Positions 4,571-63,981 of a stretch of DNA of 64,000 nucleotides are shown here, in pieces (positions within the stretch are counted from its first letter, which is position 1; every line of letters starts with the position of its first letter). Location of the stretch: positions 35,128-99,127 of IMG/VR virus record IMGVR_UViG_2920551333_000002; one strand, 5' to 3'. The translations under genes were made by a program, and so were the position numbers. The notes below the pieces were generated by a model. The model saw only the letters and a list, made by a program, of their open reading frames with translations, was not told where the DNA came from and ran no database searches. This DNA is from a virus. Taxonomy: Duplodnaviria > Caudoviricetes.

Positions 4571-4594
4571 GCCGAAAGCGGTACCGCAATCAGC
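4571..4594. promoter_or_regulatory. Dispersed 24-bp inverted-repeat motif copy
   Basis: GCCGAAAGCGGTACCGCAATCAGC, overlapping the endolysin stop codon. Confidence 0.65.
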
Positions 4595-5558
4595 GATTGA
4601 ACATGGCGATCTTGGCCATGGTCACCTTCTCGACCACCGCCGCGGCGTCGGTCGGGTTGATGATCCGTAGCCGGAGCTGGGTCTTGCTGTTGAGCCCGAA
4701 CTGGCCACCGATACTGTGCTCCACGCGGCCGTTGGCGTCCGCGCGCACGCTCAGCCGCCAGGCGTCGTCCTCGAACTTCTCGCCGTCGCGGGAGTAGCGT
4801 GACCACGCCAGGTCGATCTCCGAACCCGGCTTCAGCCCGCGGACCTTGACCAGGCCGTCCACGATGCACCAGCGAGACTCCTTCGCCAGAACCGCGACGC
4901 CGTCCTCGGCGTGGCCGGGCGGGTCATCCGCGTACTCGATGTGCCAGCGCACCGCCAGCGCGCCGCCGGCCGGGGCCTCCTGGTCCTCACCGGCACCCAG
5001 AGAGATCACCTCGGGCACGTCTTCCTCCTGCTTGATCGGCGCTCCGGGACTCTTGAGCAGCGCGGCCACCCGCCCTCGGAACGTGTTCATGTTGACGCTG
5101 TGCGGGTCCGGCTTCTGGGTGTTGACCTCCTTGTGGCCGCACACCCGAGACGCGGGCAGGTCGAACTCTCTGCACAACTCCGCGCAGAGCGCGTGATAGG
5201 CGTCGAGCTGCACCTGCGGCCACGGCGTGCGGCCGTCGTTTTCGGCCTCGATCCCGATGGACGCCCCGTTGCGGTGGTGCGGGCTGGTGCTCGGCGCGTT
5301 GTGCCAGCACCTCCCAGCCGCCACGATCCAGATACGGCCGGTGTGCTCCAGCCAGATGTGCGACAGCGGACCACGTAGTCCCGGCCGACCGGCGACCACG
5401 ACGTGCCGGTCACGCCACCCCGCGGTGTGGTGGCACACCACGCCCTCCACCGTGGGCTGCGGCCCGTGCCCACGCGACCGCCACCCGCCCACCTCCGTCA
5501 CCGGGAAACCCGTCTTTCGGGCCACGTCGGCGAGCTGCGTCAGCCACGGCATGATCAA
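4590..5558 (-). CDS. Endolysin, N-acetylmuramoyl-L-alanine amidase (Amidase_2)
   Basis: VCHHTAG, CWHNA, SIGIEAEN and GHKE...KPDP zinc-amidase motifs. Confidence 0.9.
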   Translation of the reverse strand: MIMPWLTQLADVARKTGFPVTEVGGWRSRGHGPQPTVEGVVCHHTAGWRDRHVVVAGRPGLRGPLSHIWLEHTGRIWIVAAGRCWHNAPSTSPHHRNGASIGIEAENDGRTPWPQVQLDAYHALCAELCREFDLPASRVCGHKEVNTQKPDPHSVNMNTFRGRVAALLKSPGAPIKQEEDVPEVISLGAGEDQEAPAGGALAVRWHIEYADDPPGHAEDGVAVLAKESRWCIVDGLVKVRGLKPGSEIDLAWSRYSRDGEKFEDDAWRLSVRADANGRVEHSIGGQFGLNSKTQLRLRIINPTDAAAVVEKVTMAKIAMFNR

Positions 5559-5574
5559 TCCCCCTTGACTACGA

Positions 5575-5913
5575 TCAGCTTCGGGTGAGCTGAATCAGCG
5601 CGATCACCGTGCCCGCCACGGCGACCAGAATGGTGAAGACGGCGATGATCTGCTTGGTCCGGTCGGTGAGCTGCGTGCGCGTCACCGACTCCCGCTCGAC
5701 GACGTCAAGACGAGCCTCCAACGCTGCGTACCGAGCGTCAGCCGCCGCACGGTCCTGCTCAACCTGCCGGGCCAACTCAGCGTGGCGATCGTCCACTTGG
5801 TCGAGCCGCTGCAAGATGAGCTGCGTCAAGCCGTTGTTCTTCTCGAACCCCACCTCGACCAGGCGACGCAACTCCGATAGCGCGAGCGCGACGCTCGGAG
5901 CCTCCTCGGTCAC
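5575..5913 (-). CDS. Coiled-coil membrane protein of the lysis region
   Basis: GTG start overlapping the upstream TGA; coiled coil plus one C-terminal TM helix. Confidence 0.7.
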   Translation of the reverse strand: MTEEAPSVALALSELRRLVEVGFEKNNGLTQLILQRLDQVDDRHAELARQVEQDRAAADARYAALEARLDVVERESVTRTQLTDRTKQIIAVFTILVAVAGTVIALIQLTRS

Positions 5914-6581
5914 CCAGCACCGCCCGGGGCAGGGTGCATCCCCACGAACGTGCCCGGCGGCTTGAGCCCGAACGCCGGCCGCTGCGGCTTCTCCGACGTC
6001 GCACGAACCCACTCCACAGCCAGCACCCGTGCCTGCACCCGGGCAGGGTCCAGCCGGACACCGGTCCGCATCGGCGCGAGCGGGTCAGGCTCGGCCACTC
6101 GGTCCGAACCAACGTAGGCGAGAGCTGCGGCACGGTGGGCCTGGGGTGCGTCCTCAACGCGGACCAGGTGCTTCTTCACCGCAGCGATCCGCGCCAGGTG
6201 AGCCGCACTCCGCTCGGCATCCGGCACGCCCGGCGTCCACCACGCGGGCAGGCCGTGGATCTCCTCCATCAGCGCCGCCAGCGCCGGACTCTGCCAGGCC
6301 AGCGGATCGTCCCGGGCCGGCAGGTGCGGCTCGTGCAGAGCGACGTCGATCAGCGTGTCCACGTCGTCCGGGTCGAAGCCGTACTCAGCGCATCGCCACT
6401 CGAGCTCCGAGTTCGGCAGCATGCGCAGCCCGTGCGCGCCCGTCGCCGGGGCCACCTGGTAGATCCCCCACAGCGGTTCGCCGCCGTGCGGGACCGGCTG
6501 GCCGATCCCGGCCTGCGGGACGAGCAGGTCAGCAGCGGTGTAGGCCAGCTCCACATCCCACGTCTGCCACACCTCAACCAT
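5910..6581 (-). CDS. Tail-associated protein (partner of tail-tip copy 2)
   Basis: Follows the 911-aa tail gene; W(Q)..V and E...YG...D.LIDV.H pattern shared with 9473..9946. Confidence 0.65.
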   Translation of the reverse strand: MVEVWQTWDVELAYTAADLLVPQAGIGQPVPHGGEPLWGIYQVAPATGAHGLRMLPNSELEWRCAEYGFDPDDVDTLIDVALHEPHLPARDDPLAWQSPALAALMEEIHGLPAWWTPGVPDAERSAAHLARIAAVKKHLVRVEDAPQAHRAAALAYVGSDRVAEPDPLAPMRTGVRLDPARVQARVLAVEWVRATSEKPQRPAFGLKPPGTFVGMHPAPGGAG

Positions 6582-6592
6582 GAAGCCCCCTG

Positions 6593-62759: not shown

Positions 62760-62813
62760 CGGTTCCTTCTGTTCGTCTCAGGGGGCGCCTCCTCGCCCGA
62801 GGTGGGCGAGGAG

Positions 62814-62837
62814 GCAGATTGCGTTTCCGCTTTTAGC
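62814..62837. promoter_or_regulatory. Dispersed 24-bp inverted-repeat motif copy
   Basis: GCAGATTGCGTTTCCGCTTTTAGC, overlapping the stop of the ParB-like gene. Confidence 0.65.
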
Positions 62838-63216
62838 GGTAGTGACCAGGTCCTTTGTCGCCTCCGTACATGCGGACGCGATGCTCCTCGTCGGGCGTGA
62901 GGAGGACCGCGGGCAGGGTTTCGACGCCGGCCTTCCGGGCTTTCCAGATGCGGTGCCAGCCGTCGATCACCAGGGTCCCGAGTTCGGGCACGGGCGCGAC
63001 GATCAGGGGCTTGCTGAGATCCACGGTGGCGGCGTGGTCCTCCTTGACGTAGACCAGCCACAGCATGGGGGCGACGTCCGCGACGCGCACGACGTCGGGT
63101 TCACGGCCTTCGACGATGCGCTCGGCTGCGGAGATGTTCCAGCCGAAGAAGCCGAAGCGGAACACCTCGCGCATGCGCGGCCTGCCCTGCTCGGCCGGCT
63201 GGGCGGTCACCTCCAT
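62833..63216 (-). CDS. Stand-alone ParB/Srx-domain protein
   Basis: DLSKPLIV...LVIDGWHRI.KA. Confidence 0.75.
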   Translation of the reverse strand: MEVTAQPAEQGRPRMREVFRFGFFGWNISAAERIVEGREPDVVRVADVAPMLWLVYVKEDHAATVDLSKPLIVAPVPELGTLVIDGWHRIWKARKAGVETLPAVLLTPDEEHRVRMYGGDKGPGHYR

Positions 63217-63413
63217 TTCTCCTCGTCGACGGCGTCGGTGAGGCTGGCGATGAGGGCTAGGGCCTCTCCGAGGGTGATCTCCTTGAGGCTGGCTTCGACG
63301 GTGCGACTGCCGGGCAGGGCGGCGATTTCGATGGCGTTGCTGCCGTCGACGCGGAGGACGGCGACGGGCGAGCCTGCGCAGGTGTACTCGTGCGGGTCGG
63401 GTTCGGCGGCCAC
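63207..63413 (-). CDS. Small hypothetical protein
   Basis: GTG with AGGAAGG RBS. Confidence 0.55.
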   Translation of the reverse strand: MAAEPDPHEYTCAGSPVAVLRVDGSNAIEIAALPGSRTVEASLKEITLGEALALIASLTDAVDEEKWR

Positions 63414-63652
63414 GGCTTCCTTCCTGGGGCTGTGTGGTGTTGGTGCTGGTAGCGATGTGCCACCAGGTGGCGAAGGGAAGTTGATCTTGATGTTCGCGAT
63501 CAACCCCAGAATAACATAGAGGGAACCGTTACATACAAACAGGGAACCAGTGGTTTGGTTCGCAGAACGAACGTCCCGCACGCGTCTGAGACGACAACAC
63601 GAACCAAGACCCGTACGGTAGGAACCAACGCCACACCGCCACAGGAAGCCAC

Positions 63653-63981
63653 ATGCCGCGCAAGCCAGAACCGCCGCAGCGCCCCACACTGTTCGACGAC
63701 CCCACCTCCGAGCAGCAGCAAAAAGCGGGACCGCAATCCACCCGCCGAACCGGACCCCGCAGGATCCGGGCGCCCAAGTGGACCGACCTCGTGCCCACCA
63801 GCGTCTACCTGTACGCCGACATCGACAGACGCCTCACCCAGGCGCTCACCGACGCCGGCATGGGCCCGCAAGAAGCCTTCGAGATCGCTATTAACCGCTA
63901 CTGCGACGCTTTGCAGCCGCCGATCCAGACCGAGTTCCCCGAACCGCTCACCAAGGCCGACCTCGCGCTGCCCCGCGACCC
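63653..63981 (+). CDS. 3'-truncated protein, ribbon-helix-helix/ParG-like
   Basis: MPRKPEPP..., then TSVYLYADIDRRLTQAL...PQEAFEIAINRY (strand-helix-helix); RBS AGGAAG; no stop before the window end. Confidence 0.5.

Follow-up and report, generated by a model that had tools for sequence, protein, structure and literature searches.

Dispersed 24-bp palindromes in a large temperate phage and a double ribbon-helix-helix protein as their candidate binder

Introduction

Why should one 24-bp palindrome, GCTRAWWGCGGnnCCGCWWTYAGC, recur over the length of a phage genome, and which protein would read it? The window analysed here is a stretch of 64,000 nucleotides, the last 64 kb of the 99-kb contig C11, and the element reaches 35 kb past it. 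C11 is a whole temperate phage, a siphovirus, in a circular, non-integrated form. The host assembly to which it belongs totals 11.67 Mb (about 11.7 Mb), and 11.57 Mb of this is not C11. A first-pass annotation of the window had listed about 13 copies of the palindrome, likened them to genome-wide operator sets or to dispersed centromeres, and named five phage proteins as possible binders.

Copies of the palindrome

A pattern search at two or fewer mismatches found 7 matches in the window, whereas 100 shuffles gave an expectation of 0.00. A weight matrix was then made from the motif copies, and the whole 11.67-Mb assembly was scanned. Eighteen copies scoring 18.9 to 37.2 bits were found, every one of them on C11; in the other 11.57 Mb the best score was 19.1 bits, at a single site. 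The motif is phage-specific, without a comparable copy in the rest of the genome. Twelve copies are inside the window and six are upstream of it:

4571..4594, 36.4 bits: over the TGA stop of the endolysin gene, 24 nt 5' of the next start codon
16148..16171, 30.3 bits: within the tape measure gene, translated LIAEMLS
16540..16563, 36.5 bits: within the tape measure gene, translated AKSGSAFN via rare codons
19262..19285, 37.2 bits: perfect copy in the gap between the head-tail connector and major tail protein genes, 29 nt 5' of the tail start
22363..22386, 32.5 bits: overlaps the putative scaffold gene's stop, 24 nt 5' of the major capsid start
38539..38562, 29.7 bits: g094/g095 intergenic gap
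41099..41122, 29.5 bits: final codons of the collagen-like gene, translated AKSGSAVS
43693..43716, 28.5 bits: 2 nt past the stop codon of the DnaJ-domain gene
48673..48696, 18.9 bits: weak copy at the g110/g111 junction
55620..55643, 31.4 bits: 3' of the first gene of the leftward early operon
62814..62837, 32.5 bits: over the stop of a 127-aa ParB/Srx-like gene, followed by a separate G+C-rich hairpin
63718..63741, 22.6 bits: in the 5' coding part of the double ribbon-helix-helix gene, centred +77 nt from the start codon
C11 4011, 11005, 14371, 15843, 17016 and 23462: six copies upstream of the window (weight-matrix scan)

Twelve of the thirteen positions in the original list are thus real copies, and the total for the element is 18. 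The thirteenth, 32377, was rejected because its score of 11.7 bits is the level of about 50 chromosomal background sites and the relatives have no counterpart. The weak copy at 48673 was retained on the ground that the g110/g111 junction bears one in each of the four close relatives.

The impression that most copies lie in short gaps or over stop codons is borne out: 12 of the 18 site centres are intergenic, in a contig with 11.7% intergenic DNA (binomial P = 6e-8). Five sites overlap the stop of the upstream gene by exactly 5 nt, so that the GCTGA of the motif supplies the TGA. The intragenic copies also behave as described. The motif encodes the same peptide, AKSGSA, in the unrelated tape measure (aa 272) and collagen-like (aa 292) proteins, and it does so with codons that are rare in the contig, where AAA makes up 8% of Lys, TTT 7% of Phe, AAT 10% of Asn and TTA 0.4% of Leu codons. 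A+T makes up 47% of the motif copies and 32% of the contig. These features support selection on the motif at the DNA level.

Conserved positions and changing spelling in relatives

Related prophages of Nonomuraea, Sphaerimonospora, Planomonospora and Streptosporangium, denoted below by G numbers, carry from 13 to more than 30 copies each. Their sites are at the same gene junctions, in a lineage-specific spelling around the common core AGC-N6-GCT. At the same places, the spelling is CGTTGGCGGwwCCGCCAACG in G013, CGmCAGCGGTACCGCTGkCG in G012, CGCwAGC-N6-GCTwGCG in G011, G014 and G015, and GAATGCGGnnCCGCATTC in G019. In three Nonomuraea genomes, all matches at two or fewer mismatches fall within the related prophage, and the reversed-pattern control gave 0. 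No copy was found in the two Streptomyces relatives scanned for the motif.

About 15 junctions or gene positions share a copy across five elements whose proteins are 50–95% identical. The g051/g052 junction, site of the 4571 copy, also has one in G001, G002, G003 and G005, and the tape measure genes of G001, G003 and G005 have a copy at the place matching 16148. The 19262 junction is kept in all close relatives, with a variant motif there in G011, G014 and G015. At the scaffold/capsid junction a lineage-specific palindrome is present in about 22 of 35 capsid loci, and the 55620 copy abuts the predicted ATG of the next gene in five of five close elements.

A double ribbon-helix-helix protein as candidate binder

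The candidate binder that we favour is encoded at the right end of the window:

63653..64000, plus strand: 5' two thirds of the gene for a single-chain double ribbon-helix-helix (RHH) protein

The gene, of about 175 codons, runs over the contig ends, and its remaining part is at C11 38-218. A remnant of sequencing adapter makes up the final 19 nt of the window.

The assignment of the fold is based on an AlphaFold model built from 14 sequences. The AF2 model predicts a pseudo-dimer of two beta-alpha-alpha modules, and pLDDT exceeds 90 in each of them. In VIA-align comparisons, the model matches the tandem-RHH chain 9f0x_E of the F relaxosome with Z 9.5, single-chain Arc with Z 7.8 and AvtR with Z 6.1, and Foldseek gives a probability of 1.0 to the same F relaxosome chains. 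The protein has no match in Pfam, PHROG or PDB sequences, and only 11 homologues were found among 5.8 billion proteins. RHH families are short and diverge past the reach of sequence searches.

By profile searches, the RHH gene is present in 11 of the 11 motif-bearing elements searched, a count that leaves out a sixth close element, the uninformative Sphaerimonospora fragment. The same searches found no RHH protein in three Streptomyces genomes, including the two without the motif. In 8 of the 10 elements checked, a site in the element's own spelling is centred +56 to +83 nt past the RHH start codon. The copy inside the gene of G001 is weak by the weight-matrix scan. G011 has no site within the gene and one at -322, and sites at -78 to -335, this one included, are found in G002, G011, G013, G014 and G015; G019 has two sites just upstream of the gene.

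The predicted strand residues of the RHH proteins form two groups that match two groups of motifs, those with the GCGGnnCCGC core and those of the CGCwAGC-N6 type. The match is incomplete, as G013 and G012 have near-identical strand residues yet differ at three half-site positions. The G012 protein has four RHH modules, as would be expected if the two molecules that each palindrome requires had become fused in nature. Co-occurrence, site placement and fold together make the "RHH-like" product of 63653, already on the list of possible binders, the best supported of the five, and they are what suggests a link between protein and motif.

Other candidate binders

Co-occurrence alone fails to single out the RHH protein, because three other proteins share its presence/absence pattern. 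An alternative that we hold to be unlikely, and to which we nevertheless give some weight, is that the sites are an operator set read by one of these three or by a double-GntR protein:

56225..56752, plus strand: candidate for the CI-like repressor; a helical C-terminal domain comes after an XRE-type helix-turn-helix domain
56043..56202: local palindromes TGACGC(G/A)TCA, upstream of the CI-like gene
59943..60443, minus strand: protein of 166 aa with two GntR-type winged-helix domains (domain search)
32080..32928, minus strand: ParB_N-domain protein, adjoining the terminase genes
C11 17968-19047: 359-aa helix-turn-helix protein, next to the integrase gene

Every motif-bearing lineage has the CI-like, ParB_N and 359-aa proteins, and the two motif-less Streptomyces relatives have none of the three. 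As for precedent, plasmid RK2 has about 12 dispersed palindromic operators at which KorB, a ParB-family protein, loads to silence at a distance, and the ParB_N protein could be KorB-like. GntR-type regulators control the transfer genes of actinomycete plasmids (PMC4447253).

Each of these proteins meets an objection. The region upstream of the CI-like gene lacks the 24-bp motif and has palindromes of its own, TGACGC(G/A)TCA, that are likely the operators of the CI-like repressor. They are kept at -247, -228 and -110 in close relatives, and G011, G014 and G015 have TTCGCGAA repeats in their place. The earlier opinion that the binder may not be the CI-like repressor therefore seems sound: this repressor is probably not the binder. 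The double-GntR protein has no homologue detected in the fetched regions of the motif-bearing G011 and G019, and the product of 62833, another of the five, was found in the closest relatives only; both lose ground as binders. The product of 32080 has a ParB_N domain (PF02195, E 2.4e-11) and no detected helix-turn-helix domain; it is weakly conserved among the motif lineages (E 1e-17 to 1e-22), and its gene stands beside terminase without a conserved motif site nearby, which speaks against it. No conserved arrangement of sites is seen at the gene of the 359-aa protein, and a tblastn search with this protein against 50,697 phage records gave no match.

DNA site or RNA hairpin

The motif could instead work as an RNA hairpin in long leftward transcripts, as a terminator or attenuator, a processing site, or a stabiliser of mRNA before the highly expressed capsid and tail genes. 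We consider this improbable. A perfect copy could form a 10-bp stem, and there are sites directly after stop codons and ahead of the major capsid and major tail genes. Compensatory variation is absent in 88 sites: at the two variable positions, 40 and 43 pairs are complementary where 42 and 40 would be expected, half of the sites have a mismatch at two variable stem positions, and the sense strand shows no preference for G.U over A.C. There is a weak sense-strand bias at two W positions in a site that is otherwise dyad-symmetric over 24 bp. The two halves thus vary independently, and this agrees better with a site in double-stranded DNA read by a symmetric protein than with a hairpin in RNA. 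The arms of the G014 sites do show an excess of symmetric pairs (28 against 17.8 expected, P 0.0014), and a secondary-structure role may therefore exist in that lineage.

Nor do the surroundings resemble terminators. Most sites lack a U-tract after the stem, TTTT following only the 19262 copy, and a terminator scan of 55-64 kb gave three terminator-like matches, none of them on a site. Separate G+C-rich hairpins adjoin several sites. A hairpin alone would explain neither the conservation of the arm sequences nor the conserved sites in the tape measure gene.

Structural and selfish-element readings

A structural role has a similarly small probability in our judgement. Here the sites would be centromere-like or DNA-organising, bound by an RHH protein, and would maintain or compact an episome. 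RHH proteins such as ParG and omega bind the centromeres of type Ib partition systems, C11 was assembled as a circular, non-integrated form, and the spacing of the sites is fairly even, at about 5.5 kb on average. On the other hand, no ParA-type ATPase is encoded, the Walker motif KGGxGK[ST] being absent from all 139 predicted C11 proteins; the relatives are integrated prophages, yet carry the same sites; and the sites cluster at gene boundaries, with none in the 16-kb stretch at C11 23.5-39.7 kb that houses plus-strand cargo genes. With neither a ParA-type Walker box on the contig nor a conserved site near the ParB_N gene, the first suggestion of an analogy to the parS centromeres of N15 loses its footing.

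It is very improbable that the copies are a small selfish palindromic element spread by insertion, with 24 bp giving eight codons and keeping the frame: the intragenic copies are in frame and give one peptide in unrelated proteins, but the host chromosome has no copies, all copies within a lineage share one spelling, and the reading is largely refuted by the orthologous positions of sites in elements diverged to 30–60% protein identity.

Comparison with known systems

The likeness to dispersed operator sets proposed at the outset stands, given the many phage-wide copies, their rarity in the host and their mainly intergenic placement. To our knowledge, such sets have been described in a small number of well-studied phages (L5, phiC31, R4 and SPbeta), each with a different binder fold. 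In phiC31, 17-bp conserved inverted repeats (CIRs) occur in roughly 18 intergenic copies and are bound by isoforms of the c repressor, a large helix-turn-helix protein. The present sites are likewise inverted repeats, intergenic for the most part and of similar number over an actinophage genome; they differ from the CIRs in length, and their likely binder differs in fold from the helix-turn-helix CIR binder.

The stoperators of cluster A mycobacteriophages (L5 gp71 type; PMC9283540, PMC6550527) and of the Streptomyces R4 group (PMC10276819) likewise recur in many copies throughout the phage genome and are rare in the host; most of them occupy short gaps between the genes of an operon, and their lineage-specific spelling evolves with the phage. 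In contrast to the 24-bp palindrome, stoperators are 13-bp, asymmetric and oriented, and their binder is the immunity repressor, a helix-turn-helix monomer that binds at the early lytic promoter too. In C11 the CI-like repressor probably has local operators of another kind, and a double-RHH protein of an unnamed family is the likely binder of the palindrome.

SPbeta, another large prophage, has one repeated element, SPBRE, at about 9-10 intergenic places, bound by the master repressor MrpR; SPBRE was noticed in silico long before its binder, whose fold was unexpected (PMC10516654). SPBRE is 15 bp long, is located in promoters and is bound by a protein of tyrosine-recombinase fold, whereas many of the present sites have no room for a promoter. 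C11 does encode an Xer-like recombinase, at 36065. The G019 contig was found to lack this recombinase. In G014 and G015 the recombinase matches, at the borders of the regions fetched, resemble integrases more than orthologues, so that a clear orthologue is missing there too. A binder of the MrpR type is not supported, as in these three lineages the Xer-like recombinase is not conserved together with the motif.

The predicted architecture of two beta-alpha-alpha modules in one chain relates the candidate to RHH proteins such as F-plasmid TraY of the relaxosome (9f0x), VirC2 (2rh3), the viral regulator AvtR (4hv0) and the P22 repressors Arc and Mnt. Sequence similarity to any of these is undetectable. 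We know of no TraY, VirC2, AvtR, Arc or Mnt with about 18-35 sites across a genome. In P22, a second immunity region, next to the main repressor, is made up of Arc and Mnt.

The RK2 KorB operators (OB) and the parS sites of N15 are, like the present motif, palindromes dispersed on a mobile replicon. Both require a ParB-family protein with a helix-turn-helix, and partition requires ParA as well. C11 differs in having no ParA and a ParB_N protein without a link to the sites.

Proposed mechanism

Our proposal, held with moderate confidence, is that the 24-bp palindrome is a double-stranded DNA operator at fixed junctions, most likely bound by the phage's own double-RHH protein, which would silence the prophage. 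This would most likely be a known kind of circuit, run here by an unstudied protein family. The RHH gene runs in the direction opposite to the lytic genes, as is usual for lysogeny genes. One RHH molecule, as an internal pseudo-dimer, would bind each half-site, giving two molecules per palindrome. Through the site about 77 nt into its coding region, the RHH gene would be under negative autoregulation. The other 17 sites are envisaged as lying just past stop codons, 0-60 nt ahead of the next start, in a one-directional gene array of about 60 kb, where the RHH protein, once bound, may be a roadblock for RNA polymerase or may repress transcription locally. Silencing by the RHH protein would then be a second layer next to the CI-like repressor.

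It is tempting to go further, although here we are tentative and would sooner expect some part of the picture to be wrong. There may be a family of Streptosporangiaceae temperate phages of 80-105 kb with two immunity layers: a CI-like repressor with local operators, and a double-RHH genome-wide silencer that co-evolves with a 20-24-bp palindrome at nearly every operon junction. If so, there would be immunity groups independent of CI, and the four-module fusion of G012 could span a whole palindrome.

Significance

The design of the dispersed operator set is now seen in a large, unstudied group of rare-actinomycete prophages, with a tandem RHH protein without a family name as its likely binder. 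If confirmed, this would add a new fold to the prophage-wide silencers. The motif would also be a simple sequence mark by which such prophages could be found and delimited, and possibly sorted into immunity groups, and the genetic toolkit for high-G+C actinomycetes would gain, in the protein and its sites, a compact repressor/operator pair that is orthogonal and comes with natural variants of specificity.

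Distribution of the Dispersed Palindrome

A weight-matrix scan of the whole assembly for the dispersed 24-bp palindrome GCTRAWWGCGGnnCCGCWWTYAGC identifies 18 copies, scoring 18.9–37.2 bits, all of them on C11, the contig carrying the phage. The best score in the other 11.57 Mb scanned is 19.1 bits, at one site, so that the motif belongs to the phage and not to the host chromosome. The copy at window 19262–19285 is perfect. In the window, the degenerate pattern is matched seven times at two mismatches or fewer, against 0.00 expected. Twelve of the 13 copies originally listed are recovered by the scan; the remaining one, at 32377, scores 11.7 bits, which is background.

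The copies had been described as mostly intergenic or overlapping stop codons, and this holds: 12 of the 18 centres are intergenic, compared with 11.7% of the DNA (P = 6e-8). In the usual geometry, the site lies −5 to +12 nt from the upstream stop codon, and the following start codon is 21–59 nt away. At five junctions (window 4590, 22382, 55639, and 62833; C11 15862), the motif's GCTGA arm donates the TGA stop of the upstream gene, with a constant overlap of 5 nt. The intragenic copies use two reading frames. One of these places the same peptide, AKSGSA, in the unrelated tape measure and collagen-like proteins, and the codons used make up 0.4–10% of their synonymous families, in agreement with the rarity noticed earlier.

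G+C-rich hairpins, separate from the motif, directly adjoin copies at window 62814–62900, C11 14395–14430, and C11 15800–15840; such junctions therefore contain two distinct elements.

A promoter function was considered and rejected, as follows. No sigma-70-like pattern is present in the 55–64 kb segment, the site-to-start distance of 0–29 nt leaves no room for a downstream promoter, and no conserved −10-like hexamer was seen by eye inside the site.

Conservation and Lineage-Specific Spellings

Exact matches to the pattern are few in public collections, and the meaningful ones come from Nonomuraea and Sphaerimonospora genomes and one IMG/VR provirus. Each of these has 13–17 copies, clustered in a syntenic prophage, with none elsewhere in the genome; the reversed pattern, used as a control, has no match in these relatives. 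Exact 24-mer matches in an Actinomycetota MAG and in Acidobacteriota MAGs were set aside as unrelated, there being no homology to the phage. The Actinomycetota MAG has two perfect 40-bp palindromes centred on the 24-bp motif (GCTGATAGCGGYRCCGCTATCAG; fetched stretches L040:9954–9993 and L041:10246–10285), probably an unrelated intergenic repeat since phage genes are absent nearby.

Mapping by orthologous genes shows that identical positions are occupied across the five close elements, as follows.

Downstream of the endolysin gene: one site
Upstream of the major tail gene and upstream of the major capsid gene: sites at both
Early-region junctions: sites at five
Downstream of the first early gene: one site
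Within the tape measure gene: two sites, in four of the five elements
Within the last gene, inside its 5′ end: one site

These are old, positionally fixed sites and thus not recent insertions. A copy lies 3 nt past the stop codon of a C5 cytosine DNA methyltransferase gene that is split by an intein with Hint and LAGLIDADG domains (fetched stretch L012:4038–7169), and the equivalent position is occupied in four other elements.

Another 36 loci were reached through homologues of the capsid protein. A palindrome with lineage-specific spelling is found at the scaffold/capsid junction in most Streptosporangiaceae loci and is absent in Streptomyces. Among eight additional distant prophage regions that were fetched and examined, whole-genome sets of variants are seen, and all variants have the core AGC-N6-GCT in common.

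Table. Motif variants in distant prophage elements.
Element; variant; copies
G013; CGTTGGCGGwwCCGCCAACG; about 16
G012; CGmCAGCGGTACCGCTGkCG; about 12
G011, G014, G015; CGCwAGC-N6-GCTwGCG; about 25–35 per element
G019; GAATGCGGnnCCGCATTC; 13

In G014 and G015, a de novo palindrome count finds the CGCwAGC-N6 variant instead of the GCGGnnCCGC core. Two Streptomyces relatives, with capsids 63–65% identical, have no such palindrome family. The Planomonospora prophage (G019 C23 53854–60858; L125–L126) also contains a second palindrome, GCTTACCSGGTAAGC, with five perfect copies in 7 kb.

Form and Content of the Phage Contig

C11 is 99,127 bp long with 68% G+C, in an 11.67-Mb assembly of 580 contigs with 71% G+C; the window corresponds to its bases 35128–99127. 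Nearly all of its genes are oriented leftward. The gene content includes the following.

Structural and lysis genes: terminase, major head protein, head-tail connector, major tail protein, tape measure protein, endolysin
Other genes: WhiB, DnaJ-domain protein, collagen-like protein, phiC31 Gp3-like protein
Integration: tyrosine integrase

The two genes at the extremes of C11 are neighbours in integrated relatives, the integrase and its neighbour gene form opposite prophage ends there, and a single gene is split between the window's last ORF and C11's first ORF, with about a dozen bases missing at a short direct repeat (PRD…PRD). It follows that C11 is the whole phage in a circular, non-integrated form, and the positions of the integrase and its neighbour place attP near C11 20.9–21.1 kb. 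The assembly break falls at the direct repeat. Remnants of the Nextera transposase adapter are found on both ends, at window 63982–64000 (…CTGTCTCTTATAC…) and C11 1–37 (…AGATGTGTATAAGAGACAG-like); thus, the window's final 19 bases are not phage DNA. At the small-terminase position, the gene at window 31576–32061 hits a PHROG that carries the label 'Rnase E' (E 8.5e-27), which is probably misleading.

A Probable Site on Duplex DNA

Arm pairing was tested with 88 sites from six close elements, in sense-strand orientation. Complementary pairs at the variable positions occur at the level expected from shuffling (40 vs. 42.1 and 43 vs. 39.9 expected), half of the sites have an A.A or T.T mismatch at these positions, and the 88 sites show no preference for G.U over A.C. 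Each half-site therefore varies without regard to the other, which is the behaviour predicted of a duplex DNA site for a dyad-symmetric protein rather than of an RNA hairpin. Most sites are not followed by a U-tract. Some symmetric excess between the arms is found in G014 alone, which leaves room for a possible structural contribution in that element.

Candidate Binding Proteins

A host factor is an unlikely binder, the host chromosome being free of sites. When the 139 proteins predicted on C11 were used in iterative profile searches of the six-frame ORFs from every fetched element, five non-structural proteins were found in each motif-bearing lineage.

Window 63653 (with the C11 start): double ribbon-helix-helix (RHH) protein
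Window 56225: CI-like protein
Window 32080: ParB_N protein
Beside the integrase: 359-aa protein
Gp3-like protein

Of these, the first four are missing from the Streptomyces relatives that lack the motif. Other candidates proposed in the first-pass annotation are not supported by these comparisons. The 127-aa ParB/Srx-like product of 62833 is restricted to the close group. The double-GntR protein (59943) was not detected in the fetched G011 and G019 regions, and its matches to phage records are just generic single-domain ones. A parS/ParA-type partition system is disfavoured by the absence of a ParA-type Walker box across the contig.

An XRE-type helix-turn-helix domain is predicted in the CI-like protein, together with a helical domain. 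The earlier doubt that this protein binds the dispersed motif is supported: the motif never occurs upstream of its gene, where different palindromes, TGACGC(G/A)TCA, occupy conserved places in the close group (window 56043–56202) and give way to TTCGCGAA repeats in G011, G014, and G015. The TGACGC(G/A)TCA family probably represents the CI operators, and the predicted target of the CI-like protein should be TGACGCGTCA sites rather than the 24-bp motif.

The 63653 product, of about 175 aa, begins with a basic, disordered tail at its N terminus; two β-α-α modules follow, and the AlphaFold model of the protein has pLDDT above 90 across both of them. An uninterrupted form of the gene is available from relatives, for example at L034:7788–8312. 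Structure searches with the model give, at the top, an F-plasmid relaxosome chain (Z 9.5), presumably TraY, a permuted single-chain Arc (7.8), DndE, AvtR, and VirC2. The first-ranked matches are tandem or single-chain RHH proteins, with many single RHH antitoxins and regulators ranking behind. No Pfam or PHROG family matches the protein, and its only homologues among 5.8 billion sequences are 11 hypothetical Nonomuraea proteins; the profile search recovered homologues in G014 and G015.

Eight of the ten elements examined have a motif copy, spelled as in their lineage, whose centre lies +56 to +83 nt after the start codon of the RHH gene, in the part coding for the disordered tail; the intragenic copy of G001 is weak in the weight-matrix scan. 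Additional copies lie 78–335 nt upstream of the gene in G002, G011, G013, G014, and G015, and G019 has two copies just upstream. No other candidate binder shows such a conserved arrangement. In Streptomyces plasmids, the SpdA/sps palindrome sits within the binder's own gene (PMC4170104). That analogy was dropped because sps is a different, 12-bp G+C-rich sequence (PMC4170104), and only the idea of a site within the binder gene is retained.

The RHH protein of the Nonomuraea basaltis prophage (L096:16321–17172) has four modules in a single chain, a duplication of the two-module form. With four modules, the G012 protein has the form that joining the pair of molecules predicted for each palindrome would give. 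The RHH strand residues form two groups that parallel two motif groups. This correlation is suggestive at best, as G013 and G012, in one group, have the same strand residues and different outer half-sites.

Proposed Role of the RHH Protein

The phiC31 CIRs have the same overall design as the C11 sites. So do the stoperators (PMC9283540, PMC6550527, PMC10276819) and the SPβ SPBRE/MrpR system (PMC10516654). The C11 system differs from all of these in that the site is a 24-bp palindrome, the sites are separate from the CI-type repressor, the binder probably has a different fold, and the host group is different.

The genes for the RHH protein, the CI-like protein, the integrase, and the cargo are oriented opposite to the lytic genes. 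A 16-kb stretch with plus-strand cargo genes has no sites, which fits silencing directed at the lytic genes; recent acquisition of the stretch would explain this equally well. For lytic-gene silencing, we infer the binding, polarity, and timing of RHH action as follows. The RHH protein would be produced in the lysogen and would restrain its own expression through the intragenic site. Bound to the dispersed sites of the approximately 60-kb leftward array, it would block or dampen transcription into the next gene.
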